Source: Candidatus Omnitrophota bacterium
GTDB taxonomy: Bacteria > Omnitrophota > Gorgyraeia > 2-02-FULL-51-18
Assembly (NCBI GenBank): GCA_945877765.1
Contig: CAMDWQ010000010.1
Coordinates: forward strand, 5,679-69,678
Direction of reading: 5' to 3'
Length of the DNA: 64,000 bases
In this document: piece by piece, positions 6,878-38,743 of the stretch
Layout of the letters: each line of letters begins with the position of its first letter
Numbering within the stretch: position 1 is the first letter of the stretch
Translations under genes and position numbers: made by a program
Notes under the pieces: model-generated
What the model was told of the DNA's origin: nothing
Databases searched by the model: none
Seen by the model: only the letters and a program-made list of their open reading frames with translations

Positions 6878-6942
6878 GTCATCCCCGAAGTGTTTGATCG
6901 GGGATCGTAATTAAGCTTGATTCCCGCTTTCGCGGGAATGAC
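6878..6942. repeat. REP family A doublet: GTCATCCCCGAagtgtttgaTCGGGGATC followed by the short variant GATTCCCGCtttcGCGGGAATGAC
   Basis: Two 8-bp-stem hairpins in the infA-rpmJ spacer. The same palindromic unit recurs at 7 other loci in the window. Confidence 0.8.
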
Positions 6943-6957
6943 ATTTGGAGAATCAAA

Positions 6958-7071
6958 ATGAAAGTAAGAGCGAGCGTTAAGAAAATTTGTGAACACTGCA
7001 AAATTGTGCGGCGCAAGAGGGTTGTGCGCGTGATTTGCTCTAATCCCAAACACAAACAAAGACAAGGATAA
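6958..7071 (+). CDS. rpmJ: 50S ribosomal protein L36
   Basis: [37 protein letters not shown]; under 60 aa, so missing from the ORF track. Confidence 0.9.
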
Positions 7072-7079
7072 TTACCGAT

Positions 7080-7496
7080 ATGCCGAGAATTGCCGGGGTC
7101 GATCTCCCAAAGGAAAAAAAGATTTATGTCTCTTTAAGTTATATTTACGGAATCGGCCGTCATAATTCGCTGGATATTTTAAAACAAGCGAGAATTAATC
7201 CGGATGTACGCGCTAAAAATCTTACCGATGAGGAAGCCTCCAGGATTGCAGCCATCATCCAAAAGGATTACAAAGTCGAAGGAAATTTGCGACGCGATTT
7301 AGCCTTGAATATCAAGCGTTTGATGGATATTCAATCCTATCGTGGAAGCCGTCACAAAAGAAGTCTACCCGTACGCGGTCAGAGAACACGTACGAATGCC
7401 AGAACGCGTAAGGGACCAAAGAAGACGATCGGCGCTCAGAGGAAAAAAGAAACGGCACCCGCCGCCAAACCCGCAGCTGCGTCGAAAGCTAAATAG
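7080..7496 (+). CDS. rpsM: 30S ribosomal protein S13
   Basis: 138 aa; [26 protein letters not shown]. Confidence 0.95.
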
Positions 7497-7511
7497 GAGG
7501 AAGTAAAGTAA

Positions 7512-7904
7512 GTGGCGAAAGCAAAAAAGTTTAAATCCAGAAAAAAAGTAGTAAGGAACGTCACTGAAGGTGTGGCTCACATCTTAGCAACGTTTAATAA
7601 TACACAGGTCACGATCACCGATCGTACAGGCAATGTGGTGTCTTGGGCAAGCTGTGGGTCATCGGGATTTTCAGGATCAAAGAAATCAACGCCCTTTGCG
7701 GCGCAGGTTGCTGCCGAACAGGCGGCTAAGAAATCTTTGGAGCATGGGATGAAAACCGTTGAAGTTTATGTCAAGGGTCCTGGCTCTGGAAGAGAATCTG
7801 CGATTCGCGCTTTGCAGGCCGCGGGTCTTTCAATTAGTTTGATTAAGGATGTGACGCCTATTCCGCACAACGGATGCCGTCCTCCCAAGAGAAGGAGAGT
7901 CTGA
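7512..7904 (+). CDS. rpsK: 30S ribosomal protein S11 (GTG start)
   Basis: 130 aa; AGGAGG ribosome-binding site 12 nt upstream. Confidence 0.93.
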
Positions 7905-7905
7905 T

Positions 7906-8529
7906 ATGGGCCGCTATACTGGTCCCGCGTGGCGTTTGAGCCGTCGGGAAAAAATAGATCTTTTCCCACGGAGCTCTTTGGGTTCCAAGTCGAAGTTTCA
8001 GGAGCGCAGCGATGTGCCCCCGGGCATGCATGGACTCAACCGGCAGAAGCTTTCCAACTATGGCTTGCAGCTGCGTGAGAAGCAAAAAGTAAAACGCATT
8101 TATGGTGTTTACGAAAAACAGTTTCGTAATTACTACGAGAAGGCAGCCAAATCTAAAGGCGTGACCGGTGTGACGCTTTTAGTGCTTTTGGAGCGTCGTC
8201 TGGACAATGTGATTTACCGTATGGGCATTGTCAATTCTCGCCGCCAATCTCGTCAGGCGGTAAGCCACGGTCATGTGCAGGTGAATGGCCGTAAAACGGA
8301 TGTGCCCTCTTTTCAAGTTGGCATCAATGATGTGATTACTATTCACACGGGCGACAAGATGAAGGAAACATTCAAAAAAGCTTTTGAGCAACACCGGGAT
8401 ACCGATGCTACTAATTGGCTGACAGTGGATATTGAAAATTTTAAGGCCACCGTCAAAAAGCTTCCCGAAAGAACCGATGTGCACATGCCAATTCAGGAAC
8501 AGCTAATCGTCGAACTTTATTCTAAATAA
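7906..8529 (+). CDS. rpsD: 30S ribosomal protein S4
   Basis: 207 aa with an S4 domain. Confidence 0.95.
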   Translation: MGRYTGPAWRLSRREKIDLFPRSSLGSKSKFQERSDVPPGMHGLNRQKLSNYGLQLREKQKVKRIYGVYEKQFRNYYEKAAKSKGVTGVTLLVLLERRLDNVIYRMGIVNSRRQSRQAVSHGHVQVNGRKTDVPSFQVGINDVITIHTGDKMKETFKKAFEQHRDTDATNWLTVDIENFKATVKKLPERTDVHMPIQEQLIVELYSK

Positions 8530-8604
8530 GAGCAAGGCGTCCGATACTGCGGCGGGACGAATGCGTCGCCGCGGAAATGAGCAATCTTTTAAAGGAGAAA
8601 TATC

Positions 8605-9609
8605 ATGGGGATAGCGTTAAGATCGTTTGAAATACCCAAAAAACTCGAATGCGATGAAGAATCGCTGACAAATTTTTACGGCAAGTTTTTGGCCGAACCG
8701 TTTGAACGGGGCTACGGAGTCACGATTGGAAATTCCTTGCGGCGTGTTTTGTTGTCATCGCTGGAAGGCTCTGCTGTCGTTACTATCAAAATCGAAGGCG
8801 TTTCGCACGAATTTGGAACGCTTCCTGGTGTGGTGGAGGATGTTACAGAGATCATTTTGAACATCAAGAATCTTGTGCTGCGCTCTCATACGCGCTCACC
8901 CAAGACTCTGCGTATCGAAGTGAACGAAAAAGGCGCTGTTACCGCCAAAGACATCATCACCGACGATACGATTGAGGTTGTAAACCCCGAACTTCATATT
9001 GCAACACTAACCAAGAACGTCCCTTTTCGCATGGAACTTGAAGTCCAGAAGGGCCGTGGTTATGTTCCTGCAGACCGCAATAAAAAAGAGGGTCAACCGA
9101 TCGGAGTCATCGCCATTGATTCGATATTTACTCCGGTAAAGCGCGTTAATTTCCATGTGGAAGATACGCGCGTTGGACAAATGACGGATTATGACAAATT
9201 GATCATGGAAGTCTGGACCAACGGAAGCATCAGCCCTAAAGATGCGATGCTTTTTGCCTCCAATATTTTCCAGAGACATTTGGATGTGTTTGTTAATTTC
9301 GGTAAGCTTCCGGAAGAAGAGACGGCAGCCGATATAACCGATGACAAAGAAAGAGATTTTTATAAGAGACTTGGGCAGCCTGTTTCAGAGCTCGAGCTGT
9401 CGGTGAGAAGCGCTAATTGTTTGCGCGAGGCCAACATTAAGACGATCGGGGATCTTGTATTCAAGAGCGAGATGGAAATGCTTAAATACCGGAATTTTGG
9501 CAAGAAATCTCTCACTGAAATTACCAATATCCTTAAAGAGATGGGTCTTGGATTTGGTGTAAGTTTGGACGCAGATAAGTTGAAGCAATACACCGGAGAG
9601 TCGCAATAA
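8605..9609 (+). CDS. rpoA: DNA-directed RNA polymerase subunit alpha
   Basis: 334 aa; N-terminal dimerisation domain plus C-terminal domain (ELELSVRSANCLREANIKTIGDL). Confidence 0.95.
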   Translation: MGIALRSFEIPKKLECDEESLTNFYGKFLAEPFERGYGVTIGNSLRRVLLSSLEGSAVVTIKIEGVSHEFGTLPGVVEDVTEIILNIKNLVLRSHTRSPKTLRIEVNEKGAVTAKDIITDDTIEVVNPELHIATLTKNVPFRMELEVQKGRGYVPADRNKKEGQPIGVIAIDSIFTPVKRVNFHVEDTRVGQMTDYDKLIMEVWTNGSISPKDAMLFASNIFQRHLDVFVNFGKLPEEETAADITDDKERDFYKRLGQPVSELELSVRSANCLREANIKTIGDLVFKSEMEMLKYRNFGKKSLTEITNILKEMGLGFGVSLDADKLKQYTGESQ

Positions 9610-10181
9610 TGAGACACAATCGCCGCAGCAAACGTTTCGGCCGCAGCTTGGCTGAGAGACGCGCGATGCTGGAGAACATGGTCACGAGTCTAATTTCCCA
9701 TCAGCAGATCACGACGACGCTGGCGAAGGCTAAGGAAGCGAAGCGCCTGGCAGACCGAGTGATTCACTTGGGAAAGACGGATTCGTTGGCTGCTCGCCGG
9801 CGTGTTTTTGCGTACCTTCAGGACCACACGCTAACGTCGAAAATTTTTACCGAAGTAGCGCCTCGTTTTAAGAGCCGTGAGGGAGGGTATACTCGAATTC
9901 TGCAACTTTCCCGCCGTAAAGGGGATGGGGCACAATTAGCTCTTTTGGAGCTCACGGAAAAAGAAATTAAAGTTAAGACCGTGGTGAAAAAGAAAAAGAA
10001 AGAGGATGTTTCTCAAGAGCATGACCATTCAAAACATGATCATGACCATGAACACGGTCACGACCATGAGGGGAAAGCGAAGGCGAAGCCTGACGCTGCC
10101 CCCACGAAGGGGAAAGGCTCTCAAAAGTCCGGCTTCTTAAAAAACATTGGTACGTTTTTTAGAAAGCAGGGAGGGAACTAA
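9609..10181 (+). CDS. rplQ: 50S ribosomal protein L17 with a roughly 60-aa His/Asp/Lys-rich C-terminal extension
   Basis: 190 aa against a typical length near 120; tail HDHSKHDHDHEHGHDHEGKAKAK. Confidence 0.9.
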   Translation: MRHNRRSKRFGRSLAERRAMLENMVTSLISHQQITTTLAKAKEAKRLADRVIHLGKTDSLAARRRVFAYLQDHTLTSKIFTEVAPRFKSREGGYTRILQLSRRKGDGAQLALLELTEKEIKVKTVVKKKKKEDVSQEHDHSKHDHDHEHGHDHEGKAKAKPDAAPTKGKGSQKSGFLKNIGTFFRKQGGN

Positions 10182-10202
10182 GAAACTATATCGTGTCATG
10201 TG

Positions 10203-10260
10203 TCATCCCCGAGATCTTTAATCGGGGATCAAGTATGATTCCCGCTTTTGCGGGAATGAC
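10203..10260. repeat. REP family A doublet (GTCATCCCCGAgatctttaaTCGGGGATCA plus TGATTCCCGCttttGCGGGAATGAC)
   Basis: Palindromic units immediately after the rplQ stop. Confidence 0.8.
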
Positions 10261-10268
10261 AATGGAAG

Positions 10269-10305
10269 AGAGCCTCTTTTGTTTAAGCGCAAAAGAGGCT
10301 TTTTT
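10269..10305 (+). terminator. Rho-independent terminator of the ribosomal/rpoA operon
   Basis: GAGCCTCTTTTG / CAAAAGAGGCT stem with loop tttaagcg, followed by TTTTTT. Confidence 0.65.
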
Positions 10306-10375
10306 GCTATAATATTTTCTGGTTTTTCGAGCCGGAGGCGGGTCCCTCTTTGGCGGATAATCACACAAATACCTT

Positions 10376-11575
10376 ATGAGTGTACCGATGAAAAACAATT
10401 TTAATTTTAAAATAGCCCAGCGCATGGCAAAAGTTTCTCCTTCGGCCACCCTTAAGTTAACCTCTAAGGCCAAGGAGATGAAGGCCAAAGGCTTGCCGGT
10501 GATCAGTTTTGGGGCGGGCGAGCCTGATTTTGACACCCCTGGAGCGGTAAAGGATGAAGCGGTTCGTTGTCTGAACGCCGGCTTCACCAAATACACGCCT
10601 ACTTCTGGAATTCCAGAGCTTCGATCAGCGGTGTGTGAGAAGTTTTCTGAAGATCAGGGTCTTCGCTATTCGCCTGAGAATATTGTGATCTCTTGTGGTG
10701 CCAAGCACTCTTTGTACAACCTCTTTCAGGTGCTGTGTGAGGCAGGGGATGAAGTATTAATCCCGGCGCCCTACTGGGTGAGTTATCCTGAGATGGTCTA
10801 TCTTGCCGGCGGAACGCCCGTGTTTATTCCCACCTTGCAAAGTGAAGGCTTTCGCCTGACCCCCGAGAGGCTGCGTCAAGCACTCACGCCCAAAAGCAAG
10901 ATTTTGATACTCAATAGCCCCTCCAATCCCACTGGCGGCATTATGGAAGAAAGCGATTTGCGGGCGATTGCGGAGATTGTCGTTGAAAAAAACCTCATTT
11001 GCATTAGCGATGAAATCTATGAATATTATCTCTATGACAATAAAAAGCACGTTTCCATCGCGTCATTTAACGAGGAAATTAAGAAGCGAACCTTTGTAGT
11101 GAATGGCACTTCAAAAAGCTATTCGATGACAGGCTTGCGTATCGGTTATTTGGCGGGTGATGCGGAGGTCGTCAAAAAAATTGGCATTTTACAGGATCAT
11201 TCAACGTCTAATCCCACTTCTATTAGCCAAAAAATGGCCGTGGCGGCGCTGAAACTGCCAAAAACCTACCGCGAAGAGGTGCGTCAAATATTTGAAAAAA
11301 GAAGCCGCTTGATGGTGGAGCTTATTTCTAAAGCCAAAGGGTTTAAACCGTTTGTGCCGCAGGGCGCGTTCTACGTGTTTTGTGATATTGAGAGCATCGG
11401 GCTTGGTTCGGAGGTATTGTGTGACCGTCTTTTGGAAGAGATTAACGTTGCTGTCATTCCGGGAAAAAGTTTTGGATCCGACAAGCATGTGCGTTTTAGT
11501 TTTGCCTCGAGCGAGAAAGATATTTTAGAGGGTATCGGACGGATCACGGATTGGACGAATAAAATAATTGGATAA
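10376..11575 (+). CDS. Class I/II (aspartate-type) PLP-dependent aminotransferase
   Basis: 399 aa; GEPDFDTP, the PLP-lysine region NGTSKSYSMTGLRIGY. Confidence 0.85.
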   Translation: MSVPMKNNFNFKIAQRMAKVSPSATLKLTSKAKEMKAKGLPVISFGAGEPDFDTPGAVKDEAVRCLNAGFTKYTPTSGIPELRSAVCEKFSEDQGLRYSPENIVISCGAKHSLYNLFQVLCEAGDEVLIPAPYWVSYPEMVYLAGGTPVFIPTLQSEGFRLTPERLRQALTPKSKILILNSPSNPTGGIMEESDLRAIAEIVVEKNLICISDEIYEYYLYDNKKHVSIASFNEEIKKRTFVVNGTSKSYSMTGLRIGYLAGDAEVVKKIGILQDHSTSNPTSISQKMAVAALKLPKTYREEVRQIFEKRSRLMVELISKAKGFKPFVPQGAFYVFCDIESIGLGSEVLCDRLLEEINVAVIPGKSFGSDKHVRFSFASSEKDILEGIGRITDWTNKIIG

Positions 11576-11620
11576 AAGATTAAAATAATAGATAAAAAAT
11601 AGAGAAGGGCAAGAAAAAAA

Positions 11621-12706: not shown

Positions 12707-12712
12707 ATCACC

Positions 12713-13657: not shown

Positions 13658-13663
13658 TTTTCG

Positions 13664-14344: not shown

Positions 14345-14379
14345 ATTTACTAGACTGATCTCGACAATTAAATAACAAA

Positions 14380-14520
14380 GATGACGGTGAGCCCCTAACC
14401 GGGCCTTAATAGGGAAGGCTGTGAAAATCAGCCGCGGTCCCGCCGCTGTAACCTCTATAGTTTTACTTTCGTTGAGAATGCCACTGTGAGAGTTTTCATG
14501 GGAAGGCCAAACGAAAGAAG
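14380..14520 (+). ncRNA. Cobalamin (AdoCbl) riboswitch
   Basis: AATAGGGAAGGCTGTGAAAATCAGCC...GGTCCCGCCGCTGTAACC plus a B12 box GAGAATGCCACTG...GGGAAGGCC, in the leader of a TonB-dependent receptor gene. Confidence 0.7.
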
Positions 14521-14582
14521 AGGGAGTCAGAAAACCTGCCATCATCTTTTCAAGATCAACCTTTCTTTACGAGGCATAAAGA

Positions 14583-16772
14583 ATGAAAAAATCCCTATTG
14601 GTTTCCTATTCCTGCACGTTCCTACTTCTTTTTTCTACTGCAAGCCAAGTATTGGCTGATGACCCAAAAAAAAGTAAACCAAATAACAATCAAACCCTAT
14701 TAACACTTCCTTTTGACGCCGCCGAGAAATTGATTGGGGCGACGTTTGATTTGGGAGGTATTTTTGTGGGAAGTAAGCGGTTGGCGAGTCCTTTTGGTGA
14801 GTTTGTATCGGACTCGGTGAGCTCCACGAGTGTGGTCACTCGAAAAGACATCGAGCGCTCCGGCTCAAGAAATGTTCCGGAGGCTTTGAACGAAATACCC
14901 GGAGTAGCTTTGACGGATTTGGTTGGTAACGGCGAAGAGCCGACGGTTGATTTTCGCGGCTTCAATGAGGGCGGGGATGTGGTCTATCTTTTAGAAGGCG
15001 TGCGCCTGAACGAACCCAAATCCAACAACATGAATTTCCCTCTCATTCCCACCAGCCTCATCGAGCGGATCGAAATTAGCCGCGGGAGTTCGTCGTTTCT
15101 TTATGGGGAGGGGGCCGTCGGCGGGACGGTGAATTTTGCGGGCCGGGCGCCTAAAAAAGACGGCTTTTTTGGCGAGGCCACAAGTCTTGTGGGAAGTTTC
15201 GGCCAGTGGGGTGAGAGTTTAGAAACAGGTTTTAGAAAAGAAAGCGTTTCTCTGTATCTAACCGGTGATGTTTATCACACGCGGGGTTTTCGTCAAAATA
15301 CCTCCGTCGAAAAAGAAAGTTTCTATACCAAAGGGTCGTGGGAAGTCTCCGAGAAAATCGGGCTGGGTCTTACGTATCTGCATGGCAGGGCTCATTTGGA
15401 CCGCTCGGGAAGCATCCGCGAGACGTATTTGCGGCTCTACGGCCCCGAAGCCACGGAGCGGCCGCGCAACTTTTCCGAACTTCAGTCGGACCTTGGCATT
15501 CTGGATTTCCGGCTGATGCCTCTAGAGGAAGTGGCGCTGACCGGGAATGTTTTTTTAAGAGACACAGCGGAGTTGTCGGTGGCCAATTTTGCCACTTTTG
15601 AAAGAGCTGACAATGAACTGGATCTGAATACGAGCAGTTGGGGCACTACTTTCCAGGCCGAGCATTCGAAGGAAATCCCCTGGAAATTAAAAGAGGATTT
15701 TCTTGTAGGGATGGATTATACCCATCACGATATTGATGAAGAAGATTTTAACCGCTCCAAATCGACTTTGCAGCGCCTGGCGCGCACGGTGGATTCGGAT
15801 TCAACGAAAGATGCTACGGGGATTTTTTCAAAGTTGGCCGTATCTTGGAATGAACGTGCGGGCGCTTATTACGGCGCACGGTACGACTGGATTGGGTTTC
15901 GAAATAACGATAGAATCAACCTTCAGAATAATGAACCTACCGATATTTCAAAACTAAGCCAGTCGGCCGGTGCTTCCTATCAGATTTTCGAGCCCTTGGC
16001 TGCTTCCGTCACGTACAGCCATTCGTTTAAAGCGCCAGCACTTAGCGATCTTTACGCGAATCCACTTTTTGGCGGAAATCCCGCTTTGAGGCCGGAGGAA
16101 TCTTCGGATTACGAAGCGGGACTCCGCTGGAAGCAGGGCGGAGTGATGCTTAAAAATACCTGGTTTTTAATCCGCCGGACCAATGAAATTGGTTTTGATC
16201 CAGGATTGACGGATGCCGAGCATCTTTTTGGCCGTAATAATAATTTTGGAAAGACCGAGCGTGTCGGTGTCGAGAATTTTGCGGAATGGAAACCCGTATC
16301 TTCTGCGAGGCTACGTATTTCTCATACGTACACGGAAGCGGTTTTTAAATCCAACCTAACCCCGGATCCATTTGCGACAGACCCTTTTGAAAACCAGATC
16401 AGCGGCGACCATATTCCGATGGTTCCGCGTAACCGTTTTACTGCGGATATCTGGGTAGAGCCAGTCAAAAATCTAGAATTGGATTTGGGCATGGTTTCCG
16501 TAGCCAAGCAGGTCTTGACGAACGATTTAAACAACGACCGCAACGGCCGCCGGCTCCCGGCGTATTTGGTTTTTAATTTTAGGACGTTTTATACATGTGG
16601 GCAATGGCGCTTTTCTTTTGAAGTCGATAATTTACTCGATGAGCGCTACGAGAGCGGCGGTAGTCTGGGGTTGGCGCCTTCTAGTTTTAATTCGGATCAC
16701 ACCGTAGAAGACAATTTTTTTGTGCCGGCGCCTGGGCGAAGCTATGCAGTGACGGTTAGCTATTCGTGGTAA
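14583..16772 (+). CDS. TonB-dependent outer-membrane receptor (BtuB-like, given the riboswitch)
   Basis: 729 aa; signal peptide, plug region and C-terminal aromatic residue (ends YSW). Confidence 0.85.
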   Translation: MKKSLLVSYSCTFLLLFSTASQVLADDPKKSKPNNNQTLLTLPFDAAEKLIGATFDLGGIFVGSKRLASPFGEFVSDSVSSTSVVTRKDIERSGSRNVPEALNEIPGVALTDLVGNGEEPTVDFRGFNEGGDVVYLLEGVRLNEPKSNNMNFPLIPTSLIERIEISRGSSSFLYGEGAVGGTVNFAGRAPKKDGFFGEATSLVGSFGQWGESLETGFRKESVSLYLTGDVYHTRGFRQNTSVEKESFYTKGSWEVSEKIGLGLTYLHGRAHLDRSGSIRETYLRLYGPEATERPRNFSELQSDLGILDFRLMPLEEVALTGNVFLRDTAELSVANFATFERADNELDLNTSSWGTTFQAEHSKEIPWKLKEDFLVGMDYTHHDIDEEDFNRSKSTLQRLARTVDSDSTKDATGIFSKLAVSWNERAGAYYGARYDWIGFRNNDRINLQNNEPTDISKLSQSAGASYQIFEPLAASVTYSHSFKAPALSDLYANPLFGGNPALRPEESSDYEAGLRWKQGGVMLKNTWFLIRRTNEIGFDPGLTDAEHLFGRNNNFGKTERVGVENFAEWKPVSSARLRISHTYTEAVFKSNLTPDPFATDPFENQISGDHIPMVPRNRFTADIWVEPVKNLELDLGMVSVAKQVLTNDLNNDRNGRRLPAYLVFNFRTFYTCGQWRFSFEVDNLLDERYESGGSLGLAPSSFNSDHTVEDNFFVPAPGRSYAVTVSYSW

Positions 16773-16792
16773 ACACAACCTTTTAAGAAATC

Positions 16793-16821
16793 TTGTAATA
16801 GGTGTATACACATAGTATACT
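16793..16821 (+). promoter_or_regulatory. Putative sigma70-type promoter (TTGTAA-17-TATACT) with a GTGTATACAC palindrome in the spacer, acting as a candidate toxin-antitoxin operator
   Basis: Hexamer spacing; perfect 10-bp palindrome; ribosome-binding site AAGGAGG at 16834, then ATG at 16846. Confidence 0.4.
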
Positions 16822-16845
16822 TACATCAGAACTAAGGAGGCAAAA

Positions 16846-17076: not shown

Positions 17077-17079
17077 AAA

Positions 17080-17586: not shown

Positions 17587-17847
17587 TTAGAGATTTTTGT
17601 AGGAGTCTTTTCTGTTTTTTACTAAGTGGATATGAATTTGTTTATCTTTTGTGTTGGGAGAGTAGAGGATTCGGTAGTCTCCCTGTTGTAATCGGTAGAG
17701 ATTGTCTTTTCCGGATATTTTCTTGGTGCCGCTTGGAAATGGATTCTCAGAGAGGCCTTTGAAAACCTCTTTTATTTTTTTGACATCGTGGTCCGGGATC
17801 TTATCGAGCTCCTTGAAAATCTTTTTCTCATAAAAAATTTGGTACAT
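17587..17847 (-). CDS. RelE/ParE-family toxin
   Basis: 86 aa; NLYRLQQGDYRILY...IHLVKNRKDSY matches the RelE core. Confidence 0.8.
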   Translation of the reverse strand: MYQIFYEKKIFKELDKIPDHDVKKIKEVFKGLSENPFPSGTKKISGKDNLYRLQQGDYRILYSPNTKDKQIHIHLVKNRKDSYKNL

Positions 17848-18098
17848 TACCGAATGTTTCTTTTGGAGAGATATTGATCAAACTCCTTCTGAGAAACATA
17901 TTCAGCTGTTTTTAGACCAGCTTGAACCATGGAAATATCCTGGCTGTCTTGAGCGGTTTCCCGAAGCATTTCCTGGATGGCTTGGGTAATAAAATAGCCC
18001 ATTTTGATCCCATGATTTTTGCAGTATTCAGATAGTTTGTTTTTCAGGTCCATTGGAATCCTAGCAGATAAGAAAACTTGTTGGGCATGAACGGCCAT
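17847..18098 (-). CDS. Cognate antitoxin (RHH/DinJ-like) of the RelE gene
   Basis: 83 aa; overlaps the toxin start by 1 nt; a minus-strand promoter TTGACA-17-TATATT lies at 18158-18130. Confidence 0.55.
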   Translation of the reverse strand: MAVHAQQVFLSARIPMDLKNKLSEYCKNHGIKMGYFITQAIQEMLRETAQDSQDISMVQAGLKTAEYVSQKEFDQYLSKRNIR

Positions 18099-18866: not shown

Positions 18867-18867
18867 A

Positions 18868-20840: not shown

Positions 20841-21083
20841 ATGTCGAAAGTGATTACGTTGAGGTTAAGTGATGAAGAGTATGGGCGCATTTCCGCGACA
20901 GCTCTTGTGGAGCATCGGCCTATTTCAAATTTTATAACCGCTGTTGTTTTAAGAAAAATAGACGACTCTTCCTATACGGATGCGATTGAAACGGCTCAAA
21001 TCCATTCGGATAAGAAATTGATGGCAAAGCTCAAAGCGGGGCATGCGGATGCGCGCCGCCTGAAAGGGAAGTTTGCAGGCTAA
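20841..21083 (+). CDS. Putative RHH/CopG-type antitoxin
   Basis: 80 aa; MSKVITLRLSDEEYGRI; overlaps the downstream RelE/ParE gene. Confidence 0.55.
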   Translation: MSKVITLRLSDEEYGRISATALVEHRPISNFITAVVLRKIDDSSYTDAIETAQIHSDKKLMAKLKAGHADARRLKGKFAG

Positions 21084-21354
21084 GTTTAGACTATTTGAGA
21101 CAGAGAGCTATCTTAAGGACTTAGAGAGCGATTTTGGCGGGAAGAGTTTTAAAATAAAATTAAAGCTTGCCGATGTTGTGTACTCTCAAATTCGTCAGAA
21201 TCCCTATTTTGGAAAAAATATCAAAAAGCTTCGAAACTATGAGCCCGAAACTTGGCGGTACCGTGTCGGTGATTTTAGGTTTTTTTATTCGATCGATGAT
21301 AGAGGCAAGACAATCTTAATGATTGCGGCTGACAACCGAGCGGACGCCTACTAG
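21073..21354 (+). CDS. RelE/ParE-family toxin
   Basis: 93 aa; WRYRVGDFRFFYSIDDRGKTILMIAADNRADAY. Confidence 0.75.
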   Translation: MQAKFRLFETESYLKDLESDFGGKSFKIKLKLADVVYSQIRQNPYFGKNIKKLRNYEPETWRYRVGDFRFFYSIDDRGKTILMIAADNRADAY

Positions 21355-22815: not shown

Positions 22816-22896
22816 GGTACACTTTGGAAAGGGCCCTAGAGCTCATTTGACACCCGCCATGCCTGCGTCTATAATAAGAGGCTAAATTTTAAACAT

Positions 22897-22966
22897 GTCA
22901 TTCCCGAAAGTTTTGATCGGGAATCAAACCTAGACGTGATCCCCGATTAAGGATTTCGGGGACGAC
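22897..22966. repeat. REP family A doublet (forward ATTCCCGA variant plus reverse ATCCCCGA unit)
   Basis: GTCATTCCCGAaagttttgaTCGGGAATCA ... TGATCCCCGAttaaggattTCGGGGACGAC. Confidence 0.8.
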
Positions 22967-24067: not shown

Positions 24068-24068
24068 C

Positions 24069-26034: not shown

Positions 26035-26045
26035 ATTGATGCAAC

Positions 26046-26115
26046 GTTATCCCCGAAATTTTTTATCGGGGATCATGCTTAGGTTTGATTCCCGATTAAA
26101 GCATTCGGGAATGAC
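26046..26115. repeat. REP family A doublet between tpiA and secG
   Basis: TTATCCCCGAaattttttaTCGGGGATCA ... TGATTCCCGAttaaagcatTCGGGAATGAC. Confidence 0.8.
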
Positions 26116-26153
26116 AGAGGAATGACAAAAGAATGACAATAGAGGAGTTTTAA

Positions 26154-28300: not shown

Positions 28301-28313
28301 TATGGGATGAATA

Positions 28314-29294: not shown

Positions 29295-30076
29295 AGGCGG
29301 CGATTATTTGGTTGGGGGCGATTTTACTGGCGGCGGTGGCGGCGCCCTTTTTTTTAAGTAGCGCGTCGCAATCGATGAATCTTTTAAGCCCGCTAGAAGC
29401 CCCTTCATTGCATCACTGGATGGGGACGGATCCGCTCGGGCGCGATCTTTTTTTTAGAATTTTGTGCGGCGCTCAAGTTTCTGTCGGTGTCGGGTTTGCG
29501 GCGGTTTTAATTGCTACTGTCATGGGGATTTTGATCGGGACGGTGGCTGGTTATTTCGGCAGCTGGGTGGATCGGATTTTAATGTCATTGACGGATGCGA
29601 TGCTTTGCTTTCCTGTTTTTTTTCTGATTCTGGCGGTCATCGCAATTCTTGGGCCTGGAATGATTCCCATTGTGGTAATTATCGGCGCCACCGGATGGAT
29701 GGGCACGGCACGATTGATTCGGGCGGAGATTTTAACTTTAAAACACCGCGAATTTGTCCTGGCGGCGCGCGCCTTTGGTGCCTCTAACCGCTGGATTCTT
29801 ACCCGACACCTAATTCCTAACGCGCTGGGCCCGGTGATTGTTCATGCGATTCTTGGTGTTTCGGCAGCCATTCTAACGGAGACAGCTCTGAGTTTCCTGG
29901 GAATTGGCGTGCAGCCGCCAACGCCCAGCTGGGGAAATATTTTGATGGATGGCAAAGCGACTCTTGGCAGTGCGTGGTGGATGATGCTTTTTCCGGGGCT
30001 TGTGATTTTCTTAACCGTATTGTCGGTCAATGTGCTGGGTGAGAAAATTTCCCATCAAATGCGGGGGAGCCGGTAG
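29291..30076 (+). CDS. ABC transporter permease (OppC/DppC-like)
   Basis: 261 aa; overlaps the upstream gene by 4 nt. Confidence 0.85.
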   Translation: MKAAIIWLGAILLAAVAAPFFLSSASQSMNLLSPLEAPSLHHWMGTDPLGRDLFFRILCGAQVSVGVGFAAVLIATVMGILIGTVAGYFGSWVDRILMSLTDAMLCFPVFFLILAVIAILGPGMIPIVVIIGATGWMGTARLIRAEILTLKHREFVLAARAFGASNRWILTRHLIPNALGPVIVHAILGVSAAILTETALSFLGIGVQPPTPSWGNILMDGKATLGSAWWMMLFPGLVIFLTVLSVNVLGEKISHQMRGSR

Positions 30077-30975
30077 TGGAAGCAAAGCTGCCGATTCTTG
30101 AAGTTTTAAATTTAAGAGTTTCTTTTCAGGATCCCGTGAATCCTTCTCAAAAAATTGAAGCGGTCCGCGGTATCTCTTTTGAGGCGGCGGAGGGCTCTTT
30201 TACCGCCATCGTGGGAGAATCGGGGTCAGGGAAAAGTGTCACCAGTCTTGCTTTGACGCGTTTAACGCAAACAAAGGATGTGACCGGACAAGTTTTTTGG
30301 CGGGGGAGCCGCACCAAAAAGGATCTTTTGACTCTCAATGACAGTGAGCTTCTCGATGTTCGTGGAAAGGAAATCGCCTACGTATTTCAAGATCCCGCCT
30401 CATCTTTGAATCCTGTTTTGCGTGTGGGTCCTCAAATTGCTGAAGCCTATCGAGCCCATTTTGATGTCAGTCGTGACCATTCAAAAAATCGCGCACTGGA
30501 ATATCTGGAGGCTGTGCAGATGAAGGACGCTCTACGTGTCTATCAGAGCTATCCGCATGAGCTCTCCGGCGGTATGAGGCAGAGGGCGGCGATTGCCATG
30601 GCACTCATTGCCGAGCCGCGACTCTTGATTGCCGACGAGCCCACAACGGCTTTGGACGCCAACGTAGAAACAGAAATATTAAACCTTCTTTTGAAAATTA
30701 AGCGGGAAAGAAAACTAACCATTTTATTTATCACGCACAATATGGCTCACGCCTGTTCTTATTCGGATGTGATTTATGTGATGAATCAAGGAAAAATGAC
30801 TGAAAGACTCACGCCGAGTGCGGACGGTTTTCACCCGCGGACGGACTATGCCAAAAAACTATTTGCGGCGAGTTTTTGGAATGTGCCGCCAAAATCGATT
30901 CTTCCCTGTGTCAGTCCAAATGTCATTCCCGAAATCTTTAATCGGGAATCAAACCTTAAAACAAATCACCCATGA
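30076..30975 (+). CDS. ABC transporter ATP-binding protein (OppD/DppD-like); GTG start
   Basis: Walker A GESGSGKS, signature LSGGMRQR, Walker B LLIADEPT; C-terminus runs into a REP unit. Confidence 0.85.
   Translation: MEAKLPILEVLNLRVSFQDPVNPSQKIEAVRGISFEAAEGSFTAIVGESGSGKSVTSLALTRLTQTKDVTGQVFWRGSRTKKDLLTLNDSELLDVRGKEIAYVFQDPASSLNPVLRVGPQIAEAYRAHFDVSRDHSKNRALEYLEAVQMKDALRVYQSYPHELSGGMRQRAAIAMALIAEPRLLIADEPTTALDANVETEILNLLLKIKRERKLTILFITHNMAHACSYSDVIYVMNQGKMTERLTPSADGFHPRTDYAKKLFAASFWNVPPKSILPCVSPNVIPEIFNRESNLKTNHP
30922..30951. repeat. REP family A single unit (consensus form GTCATTCCCGAaatctttaaTCGGGAATCA)
   Basis: Lies inside the last codons of the ATPase gene. Confidence 0.75.
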
Positions 30976-31266
30976 GAACTAAAAGTTATTACGTGTATAT
31001 CATGGCAAGCGAATCTATGACATTGTACATAGGGGTGACATCCGATCTAATTAAGCGTATGCATGAACATAGTAATGGGTTGGTGCAAGGTTTCACAAAG
31101 AAGCATGAGGTAAAGAAGCTTTTATATTATGAAATATTTTAAGATCCTAGAAGTGCGATCCTAAGAGAAAAAAAGCTTAAGAGATGGAATAGGGGTTGGA
31201 AGTTGAGCCTTATTCAGAAAATAAATCCAATGATGAAAGATTTATATGAAGAAGCTATGGTTTGAT
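30972..31266 (+). pseudogene. Small GIY-YIG nuclease (COG2827-like) interrupted by an in-frame TAA at 31140-31142
   Basis: MRTKSYYVYIMASESMTLYIGVTSDLIKRMHEHSNGLVQGFTKKHEVKKLLYYEIF*DPRSAILREKKLKRWNRGWKLSLIQKINPMMKDLYEEAMV; both halves match the GIY-YIG family in one frame. Confidence 0.7.
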
Positions 31267-31426
31267 CCCCGATTAAAGATTTCGGGGATGACGGGGTGAA
31301 GGGTTCGGGGATGACACATTTAGAGTTTCGGGGATGACATCTTACTCCAACGTCATTCCCGAATGTACTTATCGGGAATCAAGCTTACGCAGCGTATGAT
31401 CCCCGATTAAAAATTTCGGGGATGAC
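31263..31426. repeat. REP family A cluster (3 full units plus 2 half-sites)
   Basis: Full units at 31263-31292, 31352-31381 and 31397-31426; TCGGGGATGAC half-sites at 31303-31316 and 31326-31340. Confidence 0.8.
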
Positions 31427-31437
31427 ATGTTGTTGTT

Positions 31438-32151: not shown

Positions 32152-32218
32152 ACCTTCATCGGGATTATAATGACGAGACTTGTAAGTTTTCTAACCCATT
32201 TTCGGATAAATACTTAAG

Positions 32219-34236: not shown

Positions 34237-34272
34237 TTTTATTAGTTGAACAGTGACACCTTGGGACAGGAT

Positions 34273-34385
34273 GTCATCCCCGAGATCATTAGTCGGGGAT
34301 CAAACCTGGGCATGATCCCCGATAAGAGATTTCGGGGATGACACTGTGTGATGTTTGATTCCCGATAAATACTTTCGGGAATGAC
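34273..34385. repeat. REP family A cluster (3 units)
   Basis: Units at 34273-34302 (forward), 34313-34342 (reverse) and 34356-34385 (reverse, ATTCCCGA variant). Confidence 0.8.
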
Positions 34386-34422
34386 GTTGGGATGAAAATA
34401 CGGACAGGAGAAGAAAGTAAAA

Positions 34423-35505
34423 ATGAAAAAAATGAATAAATCTAGAAATTATAAAATTGCGGTCATTGGCGGCGATGGCACCGGCCCTGAGGTTGTGCGC
34501 GAGGCCCTCAAGGTGCTTGCCGCGTCTTCTAAAAAAAATGGCTACAAGCTGGACCTAACTCCTTTTGATTTCGGCGGTGAGAGATTTTTAAAAACAGGCA
34601 AAGTTTTGTCCGACAAGGAAATGGCGGGACTTAAAAAATTTGACGCGATTCTTTTGGGGGCTGTGGGACACCCGGATGTGAAGCCGGGAATTCTTGAGAA
34701 AGGTCTTTTGCTAAAAGCGCGTTTTGGGCTTGAGCAGTACATCAATCTTCGCCCGGTGAAACTGTATCCCGGTGTTTGGACACCTCTTAAGGATAAAGGT
34801 CCTCAGGATATTGATTTTGTCGTTGTCCGTGAAAATAACGAAGGCTTATATGTTGGTGAAGGCAGTTTTAAAAATAAAGGCAAAAAAAATGAAGTCGCAA
34901 CCCAGATTTCGCGCAACACGCGTAAAGGGGTCGAGCGCTGTATCCGTTATGCTTTTGAGTTGACCCGCAAGCGTAACAAGAGAAAAAAGCTTACGCTTTG
35001 CGGTAAGACCAATGTCTTAACCTACGCGATGGATCTGTGGTGGAGAGTGTTTCAGGAAGTGGCCAAGGAATACCCCGACGTGACGGCGGACTACGCGCAT
35101 GTCGACGCTACTTGTATGTGGATGGTGAAAAACCCAGAGTGGTTTGACGTCATTGTGACCGACAATATGTTTGGCGATATCATCACGGATCTTGGCGCTA
35201 TGATTCAGGGAGGCATGGGAATCGCGGCGGGAGGCAATATCAATCCGGAGGGCGTGTCGATGTTTGAACCGATCGGCGGCTCGGCTCCCAAATATACAGG
35301 CAAAAACGTAATCAATCCGTTGGCTGCTATTTGCGCGGGCGGGATGATGATGGACAGTCTCGGCGAAACCAAAGCGGCTGAAGAAATTGAAAAAGCGGTG
35401 ATGAGTGTGACGCAGAATAAACTTAAGTCTTTGGCTGCGGGGAAGATGGGATATAGCACCACTCAGGTGGGTGATTTGGTTGTAAAAACACTTTCCTCCC
35501 TGTAA
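34423..35505 (+). CDS. Isocitrate/isopropylmalate dehydrogenase family enzyme (tartrate/3-isopropylmalate-DH-like paralogue)
   Basis: 360 aa; [35 protein letters not shown]. Confidence 0.75.
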
Positions 35506-35539
35506 TAAGGGGAAGTGTCGGGGGAGAAAGAGAACACAA

Positions 35540-35700
35540 TTTCCTCCCCTTACGAAGGGGAGGTGCCGCAGGCGGAGGGGTTGTAGGGGTTTACGCATGC
35601 TGTTTAATGTGTCAACCACCCCGTCGCCTTCGGCACCACCCCTCCTTCGAAAGGAGGGGAAAGGGCACTTGATTTTCTCCTCTTTTCAAAGGGAGGGGAA
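35540..35700. repeat. Family B structured intergenic repeat, copy 2
   Basis: Near-identical to 28159-28300; the track ORF 35597.. starts inside it, which is spurious. Confidence 0.8.
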
Positions 35701-35725
35701 AATAACTTTAAAATTTAGGATAATT

Positions 35726-36739
35726 ATGAAGAAAAAATCAGCTTACAACGTTGCCATTATGGGCGCCACGGGCGCTGTTGGCGAAGAAATGCTCAAAATT
35801 CTTGAGGAAAGAAAATTTCCAGTTGCCGAGCTAAGGCTTTTGGCGTCGGCGCGGTCGGTAGGGAGAAAATATTCTTTCAAGGGAAAAACCTACACCGTTG
35901 CGGAGCTAAAAGAAGATTCCTTTGATGGCATCGACATCGTACTTGCCAGCGCGGGCGGCTCTATTTCCAAAAAATTTGCACCCTTTGCAGTCAAGGCGGG
36001 GGCGGTGGTGATTGATAATACCAGCGCTTTTCGCATGGATGCCAAGGTGCCCCTGGTCATCCCGGAAATCAATCCCCAGGACATTCAGAAACACCAAGGG
36101 ATTATCGCCAATCCCAATTGTTCGACCATCATTATGCTGGTGCCGGTATTTGCCATTCACCGCAAAAACCGTGTTAAAAAGGCGATTATTTCGACCTATC
36201 AGGCTGCCTCTGGTGCCGGGGCTAAAGCGATGAAGGAGCTTGAAAACCAGGCGCGGGATATTTTGGGGGGAAAGCCAGCCAAGAAAGAGATATTCCCTCA
36301 CCAGATTGCATTCAACCTTTTTTCTCATAATAGCTCCGTCCAAGCCAGCGGCTATAATGAAGAGGAAGTGAAGATGACTAAAGAGACTCACAAAATTCTT
36401 CACGATGACAAAATCAAAGTGACTGCCACTTGCGTGCGTGTGCCGGTGTACCGTGCTCATTCCGAGTCGATCTATTTGGAGCTTACGCGTAAACCCGATG
36501 TGTCAGATATTCGTAAGATCATTAGCCGGTCGGCGGGCTTGAAGCTTGTGGATGACCGTCAGAATAATTATTTTCCCATGCCTATCGAAGCTTCCGGCAA
36601 GGATGATGTGCTGGTGGGTCGTCTTCGCACCGACGCTTCAGACCCTCACGGTTTGTGGCTTTTTGTGGCTGGGGACCAGATCCGCAAAGGGGCGGCTCTT
36701 AACGCGGTGCAGATCGCTGAGATTCTTTGCCAGAAATAA
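35726..36739 (+). CDS. asd: Aspartate-semialdehyde dehydrogenase (start revised to ATG 35726)
   Basis: MKKKSAYNVAIMGATGAVG Rossmann N-terminus; active-site Cys in IANPNCSTI. Confidence 0.88.
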   Translation: MKKKSAYNVAIMGATGAVGEEMLKILEERKFPVAELRLLASARSVGRKYSFKGKTYTVAELKEDSFDGIDIVLASAGGSISKKFAPFAVKAGAVVIDNTSAFRMDAKVPLVIPEINPQDIQKHQGIIANPNCSTIIMLVPVFAIHRKNRVKKAIISTYQAASGAGAKAMKELENQARDILGGKPAKKEIFPHQIAFNLFSHNSSVQASGYNEEEVKMTKETHKILHDDKIKVTATCVRVPVYRAHSESIYLELTRKPDVSDIRKIISRSAGLKLVDDRQNNYFPMPIEASGKDDVLVGRLRTDASDPHGLWLFVAGDQIRKGAALNAVQIAEILCQK

Positions 36740-37479
36740 AAAGTCCTCGCACCATCAAGCTTGTGCTGGGTTTTGACGGCACACGTTACGAAGGCTGGCA
36801 GAGCCAGAAAAATAACCGCACGATTCAAGAGCTTTTTGAAAAATGTCTCTGCAAAATTCTCTCTGAAAAAGTCGTTGTCTTTGGCAGCTCCCGCACCGAC
36901 AGCGGCGTCCACGCCAAGGGGTTTGTCGCTCATTTCCAGACACGCCACTTGCTTACCGATGCTAAAATTAAAGACGCGCTGAATCATTATTTGCCGGCGG
37001 ATGTGGTTGTGTTTAGCGCCAAGACAGTGCGGCCCAATTTCCATGCGCGATATAGCGCCAAATCCAAGATTTACCAATATGACATTTACAATAGCCCCAC
37101 AAGACCCCTTTTTGAGGCGCCCTTTGTGCTTTGGTACGCGGGTCCCCTTCGAATAGATCCCATAAAAAATGCGGCTAAGTTTTTTTTAGGCCAGCATGAT
37201 TTTTTATCGTTCAAGGATAGCGGGGATGACAAAAAAAATACCGTCCGCACGATCAAAAAAATTTCAGTGCAAAAAAAAGGCTGCCTTATTCGTATTCTTA
37301 TTGAGGGGGATGGTTTTTTGACGCATATGGTCCGTATTATTGCCGGGACCTTGATGGAGGTGGGTAAAGGCAGAATCGAGGCCGATAGTATTTCGGCAAT
37401 TATTCTTTCCAAGAAACGTGCGCGCGCAGGCGCTACGGCCAAAGCACAAGGCTTAACCTTGCTTAAGGTTCGCTATTGA
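36727..37479 (+). CDS. truA: tRNA pseudouridine(38-40) synthase
   Basis: 250 aa; GFDGTRYEGWQSQ, catalytic Asp in SSRTDSGVHA. Confidence 0.85.
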   Translation: MPEIKSPRTIKLVLGFDGTRYEGWQSQKNNRTIQELFEKCLCKILSEKVVVFGSSRTDSGVHAKGFVAHFQTRHLLTDAKIKDALNHYLPADVVVFSAKTVRPNFHARYSAKSKIYQYDIYNSPTRPLFEAPFVLWYAGPLRIDPIKNAAKFFLGQHDFLSFKDSGDDKKNTVRTIKKISVQKKGCLIRILIEGDGFLTHMVRIIAGTLMEVGKGRIEADSISAIILSKKRARAGATAKAQGLTLLKVRY

Positions 37480-37486
37480 GCTGATT

Positions 37487-37771
37487 TTATGAAGTTGCTC
37501 TTTTTTCCCATTCTAGGGGGGAGAAGGCACGAATCGTGATGCCGTGGATGCTGGAATTTTTGCCTATGGCGAGCGCTTCATAGATGGCGGCGTGTCTCTG
37601 AAGTAGTGATTTTCCTTCGAATCCCGCCGAAACAATCACCAAGTCCAACAGCATTTCCTTTTCTTTCATTGTCTCTGGATGACCGACGTGTGTGTGACTT
37701 TTATCCGTTAACTCCATTAGAAGGGGGGAGAAGTGACTTTCTAGCGTTGAGCGTATCTTTTCGAGGACCAT
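37487..37771 (-). CDS. BolA-family protein
   Basis: 94 aa; LDLVIVSAGFEGKSLLQRHAAIYEAL...IHGITIRAFSPLEW. Confidence 0.75.
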   Translation of the reverse strand: MVLEKIRSTLESHFSPLLMELTDKSHTHVGHPETMKEKEMLLDLVIVSAGFEGKSLLQRHAAIYEALAIGKNSSIHGITIRAFSPLEWEKRATS

Positions 37772-37861
37772 AGCATCATTGTACTACACGATTGACAGCG
37801 CACCGCTTTTGGGGGGTATAATAAAACTCTGGCGTTAGGGCGGTCAAAAAATGGAGGCTCC

Positions 37862-38647
37862 ATGAAAAAAACCTTACTTCGATTGATCGGCATCTTTTTT
37901 TTGGCCGCGGTGCTTCTGGTGGTGGGCAAGGACATGATTGCCAAGTCTGTCATTGCAAATATTTTTCAGAAGACGACAGGCTTGAGGCTGGGTATCGGCA
38001 ATTTTCACTCGAGTCTTCTTAAGTCGGTGATCAGCGTTAATGATTTGAATCTTTATAATCCAGCTGCCTATTCCGAAAAAGTGATGTTCTCTATTCCTGA
38101 GGCGCGGGTAGGTTTTGACCTCGGCTCTATTTTGACAGGCAAGCCACATCTAAAGGAAATCTACGTCCATTTGGCTGAGCTTAAGATTGAGCGCAATAAA
38201 GCAGGCAAGCTTAATCTTTCGGAGCTAAAGCCTCCCGGTGGTAAAAAGAAAGCGCCGAGAGCGGGAAGCACCGCCACAGTCAGTGTTGACGTAATGAGGC
38301 TACGCGTCGATAAGGTGATTTATAAAGATTTCTCGCGGGCGACTCCGTCGGTTCAGGAGTTTGCTCTCAATATCGACGAAACTTATCGTGATGTCAAAGA
38401 TGTCAAGGCGCTGGTTCCCATCATCATCGGCAGCGCGCTAAAAAGTAGTGCACTGCGCTCTCTAATCAATTTTAATGTGAGCGATCTTCTGTATAATTTT
38501 GAAGCTGGCGGTATTAACATCCGTGATTTGGGCCTTGATCAACTCTCCAATATTTTTAACTCCGGCGTTGGCCAGACGGCTCAGAGTGTCTTGGGTAGTA
38601 TTTCGGGTCAGTTAGACTCGTTGTTTGACTCTTCCCAAAAAAAATAA
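37862..38647 (+). CDS. Hypothetical membrane-anchored protein (N-terminal transmembrane segment; weakly AsmA-N-terminal-like)
   Basis: 261 aa; N-terminal hydrophobic anchor; no confident family assignment. Confidence 0.45.
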   Translation: MKKTLLRLIGIFFLAAVLLVVGKDMIAKSVIANIFQKTTGLRLGIGNFHSSLLKSVISVNDLNLYNPAAYSEKVMFSIPEARVGFDLGSILTGKPHLKEIYVHLAELKIERNKAGKLNLSELKPPGGKKKAPRAGSTATVSVDVMRLRVDKVIYKDFSRATPSVQEFALNIDETYRDVKDVKALVPIIIGSALKSSALRSLINFNVSDLLYNFEAGGINIRDLGLDQLSNIFNSGVGQTAQSVLGSISGQLDSLFDSSQKK

Positions 38648-38673
38648 ACCCCCGAGCCCCACATCACGCCAAT

Positions 38674-38743
38674 GTCATCCCCGAAATTATTTATCGGGGA
38701 TCATACCTTAGTTTGATTCCCGACTAGAGATTTCGGGAATGAC
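38674..38743. repeat. REP family A doublet upstream of the giant gene
   Basis: GTCATCCCCGAaattatttaTCGGGGATCA ... TGATTCCCGActagagattTCGGGAATGAC. Confidence 0.8.

Follow-up and report, generated by a model that had tools for sequence, protein, structure and literature searches.

This paper concerns a family of about 30-nt palindromic repeats, and a small gene lying among them, in a 64-kb stretch of DNA from a Candidatus Omnitrophota bacterium (the whole analysed stretch, 64,000 nucleotides, is called here the window). It belongs to a metagenome-assembled genome, and the SecY encoded in it shows 80-83% identity to proteins listed by NCBI under Candidatus Omnitrophica/Omnitrophota. The comparisons described below make it very probable that the repeats are Ssn-related motifs (SRM), the type of repeat also described as NTS, dRS3 or CGTC-tagged REP, and that their cognate ssn gene is present in the window. 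As a kind, such repeats are already known: they are Ssn-related hairpin motifs accompanied by an ssn gene. What this work adds is modest, namely a member from Omnitrophota, a long-loop version of the motif, an intact and a nonsense allele of the gene, and four sites which are filled in the window and empty in relatives.

The Ssn family was defined by Chenal et al. (Nat Commun 2025; PMC11893778). Its members, of ~94-95 aa, have GIY-YIG as their single domain (CDD cd10448) and act as site-specific nucleases of single-stranded DNA (ssDNA). They bind their hairpin target only as ssDNA and only on the tagged strand, which they hydrolyse at a point a few nucleotides to the 5' side of the tag (PMC11893778). 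The target is the NTS repeat, CGTCATTCCCGCGMAVGCGGGAATCYRG, which contains the Neisseria dRS3 repeat, and for the motifs in general the name SRM was proposed (PMC11893778). Of the bases around the palindrome, the three on its 5' side (the GTC tag) govern cleavage and the C next to its 3' end is critical for binding (PMC11893778). The ssn genes are typically bracketed by repeats, on both sides in 42% of the homologs (PMC11893778). In N. meningitidis Ssn trims incoming NTS-bearing ssDNA and lowers transformation (PMC11893778).

The same SRM-ssn-SRM architecture was found in the window, where the units at 30922-30951 (+) and 31263-31292 (-) bracket an open reading frame (ORF) at 30972-31265. The initial annotation had left the cognate enzyme of the repeats unidentified; we propose the bracketed GIY-YIG gene as a candidate for this role; its product is 50% identical to Neisseria SsnA. 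GIY-YIG is the sole Pfam match of the protein (E 1.5e-14, residues 6-76), and there is no additional DNA-binding domain. When the protein was compared by tblastn with a plasmid collection, it matched two N. gonorrhoeae chromosomes filed there as plasmids with an E value of 9e-21, below the limit of 1e-10 (tblastn) used to define homology in the SsnA family (PMC11893778). At the match lies an ORF of 94 aa containing all three residues that were mutated in the Neisseria study (PMC11893778), namely Y6, Y17 and E64. In the BLASTP alignment with N. gonorrhoeae SsnA the identity is 50% over 86 residues (E 2e-30), and these three residues face Y9, Y19 and E66 of the window protein. Downstream of the Neisseria ORF there is an NTS-like repeat, CCGTCATTCCCGCTCAGGCGGGAATCCGG, which departs from the published NTS consensus in the loop only. 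The NCBIfam scan yielded no model for the window protein, and the search of the PDB gave weak matches (E about 1e-3) to the UPF0213 structures 1ywl and 1zg2; as far as such matches tell, the protein is not a close member of the UPF0213/YhbQ group.

In the window, codon 57 of ssn is TAA, which truncates the product to 56 aa. Because this stop lies upstream of the codon of the catalytic Glu66, the allele should be inactive. The TAA (56-aa) allele was found in six contigs, including GCA_947444795.1, and an intact 97-aa allele (P0001; TCA, Ser57) at the matching locus in two contigs (L079 and L080) from other samples of the series. The two alleles are distinguished by a single C-to-A change; in the rest of the 561-nt element the TCA contigs show 3 to 6 further differences from the window, and the strains with the intact allele carry repeats around ssn that are identical to those of the window. 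Unless its genome holds another copy of ssn elsewhere, the repeats of the window strain are probably relics that have lost their enzyme.

The repeat family stands out clearly from the background, in line with the initial annotation. Allowing at most one mismatch, the CCCGA-N9-TCGGG core occurs 15 times in the window, against an expectation of 1.85 (sd 1.33, maximum 5) obtained from 100 dinucleotide-preserving shuffles of the window, and all 15 matches fall between 6884 and 38737. We recognised 17 complete hairpin units and two half units, distributed over nine places between genes from 6878 to 38743 (17 units in 32 kb), and no hairpin units downstream of 38743 within the window. The earlier figure of roughly 19 units is reproduced if the half units are counted, and the coordinates, the stem length and the arrangement in doublets had also been given correctly. 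The units, together with the ssn gene, are the following.

6878-6907, plus strand: long-loop unit (GTCATCCCCGA-N9-TCGGGGATCG) in the infA-rpmJ spacer.
6918-6942, minus strand: short-loop NTS-like unit (reverse complement GTCATTCCCGCGAAAGCGGGAATCA), heterotypic partner of the unit at 6878.
10202-10231, plus strand: long-loop unit between the rplQ stop codon and the terminator hairpin at 10266-10305.
10236-10260, minus strand: short-loop NTS-like unit (reverse complement GTCATTCCCGCAAAAGCGGGAATCA), partner of the unit at 10202.
22897-22926, plus strand: long-loop unit upstream of gap (23000) and downstream of the promoter at 22847-22875.
22937-22966, minus strand: long-loop unit with the degenerate tag GTCGT, partner of the unit at 22897.
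26046-26075, plus strand: long-loop unit with the degenerate tag GTTAT, in the tpiA-secG spacer.
26086-26115, minus strand: long-loop unit, partner of the unit at 26046, followed by degenerate GAATGAC copies (26116-26140).
30922-30951, plus strand: left ssn-flanking unit, overlapping the lengthened 3' end of the ABC ATPase ORF 30076-30975.
30972-31265, plus strand: ssn gene, 97 codons, GIY-YIG, with TAA at 31140-31142 (codon 57) and its own TGA within the next unit.
31263-31292, minus strand: right ssn-flanking unit, supplying the TGA stop of ssn.
31304-31338, minus strand: two tandem 5'-half units (GTCATCCCCGAA) with a period of 23 nt, on the tag side of the unit at 31263.
31352-31381, plus strand: long-loop unit, left half of the doublet adjoining the ssn element.
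31397-31426, minus strand: long-loop unit, right half of the 31352 doublet, just upstream of the second ABC ATPase gene.
34273-34302, plus strand: long-loop unit, first of a triplet in the thiG-leuB-like spacer.
34313-34342, minus strand: long-loop unit, second of the triplet, forming with the unit at 34273 a ~31-bp hairpin of -25 to -27 kcal/mol.
34356-34385, minus strand: long-loop unit, third of the triplet.
38674-38703, plus strand: long-loop unit between a DUF748/AsmA-like gene and a 4239-codon ORF.
38714-38743, minus strand: long-loop unit, partner of the unit at 38674.

In a unit, the tag YGTCAT stands on the 5' side of an 8-bp palindrome (ATYCCCGA/TCGGGRAT) that encloses a biased 9-nt loop, and the tail ATCAAACC stands on the 3' side. 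Fifteen of the 17 units correspond to GTCATYCCCGA-N9-TCGGGRATCA, with three departures among them: a GTCGT tag, a GTTAT tag and an ATCG end, each in one unit. The other two units (6918-6942 and 10236-10260) are short-loop variants (GTCATTCCCGCRAAAGCGGGAATC) of the form GTCATTCCCGC(G/A)AAAGCGGGAATCA, thus the window contains two hairpin subtypes, with loops of 9 and 4 nt. The GTCAT tag is present in 15/17 units, the 8-bp stem and the 3' ATC in all 17, and among the 14 units matching the GTC[AG]T pattern the base preceding GTC is T in 11 and C in three. The two half units (31304-31315 and 31327-31338) comprise only the 5' half. At position 3 of the stem, where the search pattern left both members free, the bases covary: the pair is C-G or T-A in 12/12 units in the window and in 83/84 units elsewhere, the remaining one having a T-G wobble. 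The loop had been described earlier as conserved, and a bias does exist (consensus AAATCTTTAAT in the window, A-W-K-Y-T-T-T-W-R in other genomes); a fixed loop sequence does not. The likeness of the bias in the window and in other phyla suggests that the loop may be read by a protein or be constrained in some other way. Contrary to the claim that each unit carries two GATC sites, two were present in 3/17 units, one in 7/17 and none in 7/17, and an interpretation of the units in terms of Dam and GATC was rejected, since just 3/17 have two sites.

The units are arranged as inverted doublets with the GTCAT ends pointing outward and with spacers of 5-16 nt. Departures from this layout are the triplet at 34273-34385 and the pair separated by ~310 nt and a gene (30922 and 31263). 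We considered whether the spacer of the doublets is what is left of the inner termini of the ssn element; this idea was dropped, as the shared AAACC is the tail of every unit. Two sites belong to the ribosomal-protein operon: the infA-rpmJ spacer, which had been noticed before, and the place just after rplQ, which had been overlooked. All units lie between genes except the one at 30922-30951, which overlaps the last ~18 codons of the ORF 30076-30975, an ORF that was lengthened by the insertion itself. Degenerate fragments of the unit occur at the borders of the sites: ATGAC at the infA stop codon, GTCATGT before 10202 and GAATGAC copies after 26115. Such short GAATGAC, GATGAC or GTCAT fragments abut units at 26116-26140, 38744-38760, 6866-6870 and 10194-10198. 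Upstream of secG, weak scores as -35-like hexamers were obtained for two unit ends reading ATGACA (at 26111 and 26133). A perfect sigma-70-type promoter (TTGACA-17-TATAAT, 12/12; 22847-22875, plus strand) is located 22 nt upstream of the doublet 22897-22966, which would consequently sit in the 5' untranslated leader of gap.

The description of the family as REP-like was correct in so far as the repeats are short, multi-copy, extragenic hairpins in inverted doublets, and mistaken if it implies a RAYT transposase, because the partner appears to be Ssn. If the units were classical REP or REPIN elements mobilised in trans by a RAYT enzyme (Y1, HUH), the gene at 60171-60824 (minus strand) would be a candidate: the REPIN-like doublets and the shape of the hairpins fit this explanation, and the product of the gene is Y1_Tnp-like (Pfam E 5.7e-14; NCBIfam REP_Tyr_transpos 59 bits, which is below the 80-bit cut-off). 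However, this gene has its own 30-nt inverted repeats (60133-60162 and 60927-60956, with a third copy near 58786), unrelated to the units, so the earlier remark that the RAYT-like gene is flanked by a different sequence holds. Moreover, the units are tagged with GTC and not with GTAG, it is a GIY-YIG gene and not a RAYT gene that lies between units, and CGTC-tagged repeats were never found associated with tyrosine transposase genes (PMC3733652). We regard mobilisation by RAYT as very improbable. The repeats of the Y1 gene are 90% complementary to each other and the third core copy is at about 58786-58800; the gene and its repeats are a separate small system of the kind called TIRYT/TIRtron by Di Nocera et al.

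Folding as DNA gave, for a single unit, the hairpin with an 8-bp stem and a 9-nt loop (-6.9 to -7.7 kcal/mol), which agrees with the structure proposed earlier. Homotypic doublets favour one hairpin of ~31 bp (-25 to -27 kcal/mol, z about -7 to -8), and the heterotypic doublet 6878-6942 folds into two separate hairpins. A role at the mRNA level was proposed for the REPs of E. coli, and the units could similarly be mainly RNA elements, hairpins that stabilise, process or punctuate polycistronic mRNAs, their link to ssn being secondary. The great stability of the homotypic doublets fits such an explanation, all sites are in transcribed or likely transcribed same-strand operon spacers (infA-rpmJ, the ABC genes, the gap 5' untranslated region), and many tagged REPs were argued to function as RNA (PMC3733652). 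On the other hand, none of the units is followed by a run of T or was called terminator-like, for which reason the terminator reading was rejected, and the Rfam scan of the whole window at gathering thresholds detected a cobalamin riboswitch only and nothing at the units. The tag and the tail are unpaired and conserved and the loop is biased across phyla, which fits strand-specific recognition by a protein better than a generic RNA hairpin, and Neisseria SsnA does not bind the RNA form of the repeat (PMC11893778). A primarily RNA-level function appears to us unlikely, while side effects on mRNA would be compatible with the units being Ssn targets.

The pairing of such hairpins with ssn genes recurs in other genomes. 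Two contigs chosen solely because they contain the 30-nt motif, L035 from an Omnitrophota metagenome-assembled genome and L075 from Nitrospirales, encode ssn homologs that are 57% and 55% identical, respectively, to the window protein and are flanked by GTCAT-tagged hairpins. The order in L035 is GTCATTCCCGCGAAGGCGGGAATCC, ssn, GATCCCCGCCTTCGCGGGGATGAC, and that in L075 is similar; in L035 (4481-5873) the flanking hairpins are of the short-loop NTS-like type, with a 9-nt-loop unit ~1 kb off. In a set of 80 metagenomic homologs, hairpins on both sides were found for the nearest (L100-L102, L104, L106 and L111), and the long-loop hairpin of L106, GTCATTCCCGCAATCTTTTAGCGGGAATCTA, corresponds to the window hairpin, its closing pair being changed in a compensatory way.

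The motif is by no means confined to the window. In 596 Gb of scanned sequence the exact pattern GTCATYCCCGA-N9-TCGGGRATCA was found at at least 78 loci in at least 52 assemblies (the latter counted from record names), against an estimated chance expectation of about one in 596 Gb for a pattern with 19 fixed and 2 two-fold positions. The records that bear it are labelled Omnitrophota, Planctomycetia, Nitrospirota, Ignavibacteria, Elusimicrobia, Desulfobulbaceae, Bacteroidetes, Colwellia, Gracilibacteria and others. One of them, GCA_964492015.1, is labelled Planctomycetia, encodes a SecY 92% identical to that of the window and has at least 7 motif loci. This assembly is the closest relative, and in its contig L097 a different GTCAT-tagged hairpin (reverse complement GTCATTTCGAGGCCAAAGGCCGAGAAATC) is found at about 3230-3470, in an ABC ATPase/NTP-transferase spacer which is empty in the window; the hairpin adjoins a masked run of N. 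Its difference, and its location at a site empty in the window, imply that related genomes carry several hairpin subtypes at different places.

Four sites could be compared with orthologous regions of related Omnitrophota genomes, represented by contigs whose SecY (83-92% identity) or ABC ATPase proteins (69-77% identity) resemble those of the window. All four are empty in the relatives, with no unit in any of these loci, which agrees with the insertion polymorphism between related genomes expected of a mobile family. Between the infA stop and the rpmJ start there are 15 nt in L093 and L094 and 90 nt in the window, 65 of which are the doublet. The spacer between rplQ and the aminotransferase gene is 109 nt in relatives and 194 nt in the window, where the doublet follows the stop codon and precedes a conserved terminator hairpin; L093 and L095 lack it at the orthologous place. 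In L097, L098 and L099 no gap separates the two ABC ATPase genes, which overlap at TGATG, and in the window ~550 bp are inserted here in the order unit, ssn, unit, two half units, doublet; the upstream ATPase, 270-278 aa in the relatives, has 299 aa in the window and runs into the first unit, and the downstream gene has a new N-terminus. The thiG to leuB-like spacer, finally, is 45-46 nt in L098 and L099 and 186 nt in the window, where it holds the triplet. Since the compact, translationally coupled state is common to several relatives, gain in the lineage of the window would be the simpler reading of the four sites. The proposed mobility of the repeats is supported by these presence/absence comparisons. 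A look-up with the exact InfA sequence returned only contigs of the same population with identical spacing, and no polymorphism at the strain level.

The composition of the filled sites also bears on the possibility that the units are attachment or target sites for the site-specific recombinase of some other element. There is a precedent in Neisseria, where dRS3 is documented as the target of the IS110-type integrase of the filamentous Nf prophages (PMC11893778), and both short-loop units of the window contain the dRS3 core ATTCCC-N8-GGGAAT. However, the inserts at the filled sites consist of the units themselves only, no recombinase or prophage gene is found beside any of the nine sites, and the exact motif had no match in 2.9 million viral contigs. 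This explanation we consider extremely improbable.

Several points count against identifying the repeats as SRM with a cognate ssn gene, or against their mobility. The published SRM pattern, HGTCWYN(0-2)YYVSBRHN(0-5)WNVSBRGN(0-2)RNCYNB, has no match on either strand of the window, and a relaxed form of the pattern matched only unrelated sequence. The window units miss the pattern at the tail (ATCA instead of ATCY), and the 9-nt-loop units also at CCCGA and in the length of the loop; it must be noted that the pattern is the search heuristic of the authors and not a biological definition. The 9-nt-loop hairpin, a predicted target of the Omnitrophota Ssn, is unlike every Ssn substrate tested so far. 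There are two hairpin subtypes, with 9-nt and 4-nt loops, and just one ssn gene visible in the window, and this gene is a nonsense allele which cannot act in the window strain. Strict tagged hairpins on both sides were detected in just 8 of 71 metagenomic homologs, a number to be read as a lower bound and not as a measured rate, as the detector demands perfect stems and probably undercounts. Presence and absence between species could in principle reflect loss instead of gain, and at the four filled sites no target-site duplication or clean insertion boundary could be defined, the borders containing degenerate half units.

How the repeats and the ssn gene reached these sites can be outlined only tentatively. 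Single units, doublets and the SRM-ssn-SRM element may have been inserted in an insertion sequence (IS)-like or MITE-like manner, analogous to RAYT and REPIN elements. The analogy to IS and to RAYT/REPIN was raised by Chenal et al. as a hypothesis only (PMC11893778). Judging from the experiments with its relatives, Ssn would recognise the hairpin on the tagged ssDNA strand and hydrolyse it just 5' of the tag. An inverted doublet would offer one cleavable unit per strand, so the cuts would fall at its two outer borders. As a GIY-YIG nuclease is hydrolytic and forms no covalent intermediate, copying would depend on the replication or repair machinery of the host. The tandem half units at 31304-31338 are on the tag side of the unit at 31263, which is the side where Ssn enzymes cut, and they may be by-products of the copying or insertion process. 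A degenerate array of half units with ~20-nt spacing (GGGAATGAC, GGGAATGAT, GGGGATAAC) is found upstream of N. gonorrhoeae ssnA as well (L180, 300-350).

It is conceivable, although we find it doubtful, that the SRM-ssn-SRM element and the gene-less doublets represent a currently or recently active pair of autonomous and non-autonomous transposable elements, driven by a hydrolytic GIY-YIG ssDNA nuclease. If so, this would be a transposition route distinct from those of the DDE, HUH, serine and tyrosine enzymes, and its footprints would be seen in the 5'-half units repeated in tandem on the tag side. The window would then offer natural material for exploring this idea, with its filled and empty sites and with intact and nonsense ssn alleles in sibling strains.

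Apart from the question of transposition, the results tie a family which the initial annotation had taken for REPs with an unknown enzyme to the recently described Ssn/SRM system, and extend this system to Candidatus Omnitrophota. The long-loop variant escapes the published pattern, thus surveys using that pattern undercount. The comparison of filled and empty sites, one of the former lying between translationally coupled genes and another inside a ribosomal-protein operon, provides comparative support for the insertion of the repeats and of the ssn element, which the original paper only hypothesised. The intact allele P0001 together with the 9-nt-loop unit is a candidate for a new specificity of ssDNA cleavage.

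Some other features of the window may be mentioned. The cobalamin riboswitch (RF00174, 105.9 bits; 14368-14557, plus strand) is directly upstream of a TonB-dependent receptor gene (14583-16772). A low-GC stretch at 52356-55221 (0.38-0.40, compared with about 0.47 elsewhere), containing a DndB-like gene (52356-54437) and a DpnI/Dam-replacing gene (54454-55221), is probably an acquired island. The 4239-codon ORF (38962-51681, plus strand) has RHS repeats, an ILEI domain and a Peptidase_C39 domain, and its giant product is probably a secreted toxin-like or adhesin-like protein. Toxin-antitoxin-type pairs are located at 17587-18098 (minus strand; ParE toxin at 17587-17847) and at 58009-58676 (plus strand; MazE-type antitoxin and PIN domain), and a further small overlapping pair, putatively of this type, lies at 20841-21354 (plus strand). 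There are no tRNA genes in the window.

It is instructive to compare the window system with related systems described previously. REP, BIME and REPIN elements reportedly go together with RAYT transposases (Nunvar 2010; Bertels and Rainey 2011). The logic is the same as in the window: a single-copy enzyme gene flanked by inverted hairpins, accompanied by dispersed intergenic singlets and doublets, and an enzyme which recognises the hairpin in ssDNA. The chemistry is different, as RAYT is an HUH tyrosine transposase with a covalent intermediate and a GTAG tag, whereas Ssn is a hydrolytic GIY-YIG enzyme with a GTC tag. We know of no transposition chemistry for Ssn.

The CGTC-tagged REPs were described by Di Nocera et al. 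(BMC Genomics 2013; PMC3733652) as repeats with no dedicated transposase and no known partner enzyme. Like the window units, they are short palindromic extragenic repeats, often dimeric, which occur in many phyla and are not associated with RAYT. Their unpaired ends, a CGTC tag and opposite to it a short tail with the consensus CCA, are matched in part by the window units, whose tag is mostly TGTC and whose tail is CAAACC; the loop of the window units is longer than in the four described families. The Neisseria dRS3 repeats and intergenic mosaic elements are from another phylum and have another dominant loop, and their RS-type filler is absent from the window, where the spacers are just 5-16 nt. 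What they have in common with the window is the ATTCCC-N8-GGGAAT core in two window units, the intergenic clustering and the arrays of half units beside full units (31304-31338 in the window, 300-350 of L180 in N. gonorrhoeae).

The known Ssn/SRM systems differ from that of the window in the host, which is here Candidatus Omnitrophota, and in the gene copy, which has here a nonsense codon. Compared with NTS, whose loop is 2-4 nt, most window units close the stem with an A-T pair (CCCGA/TCGGG) and have a 9-nt A/T-rich loop, while the units at 6918 and 10236 are almost Neisseria NTS. The repeats share the GTCAT tag, the ATTCCCG...CGGGAAT palindrome, the 3' ATC and the multi-copy, intergenic distribution, and the gene shares the coding capacity for a ~95-aa single-domain GIY-YIG protein, the codons aligning with the catalytic Tyr, Tyr and Glu, the last of them beyond the stop of the window allele, and the inverted flanking hairpins.

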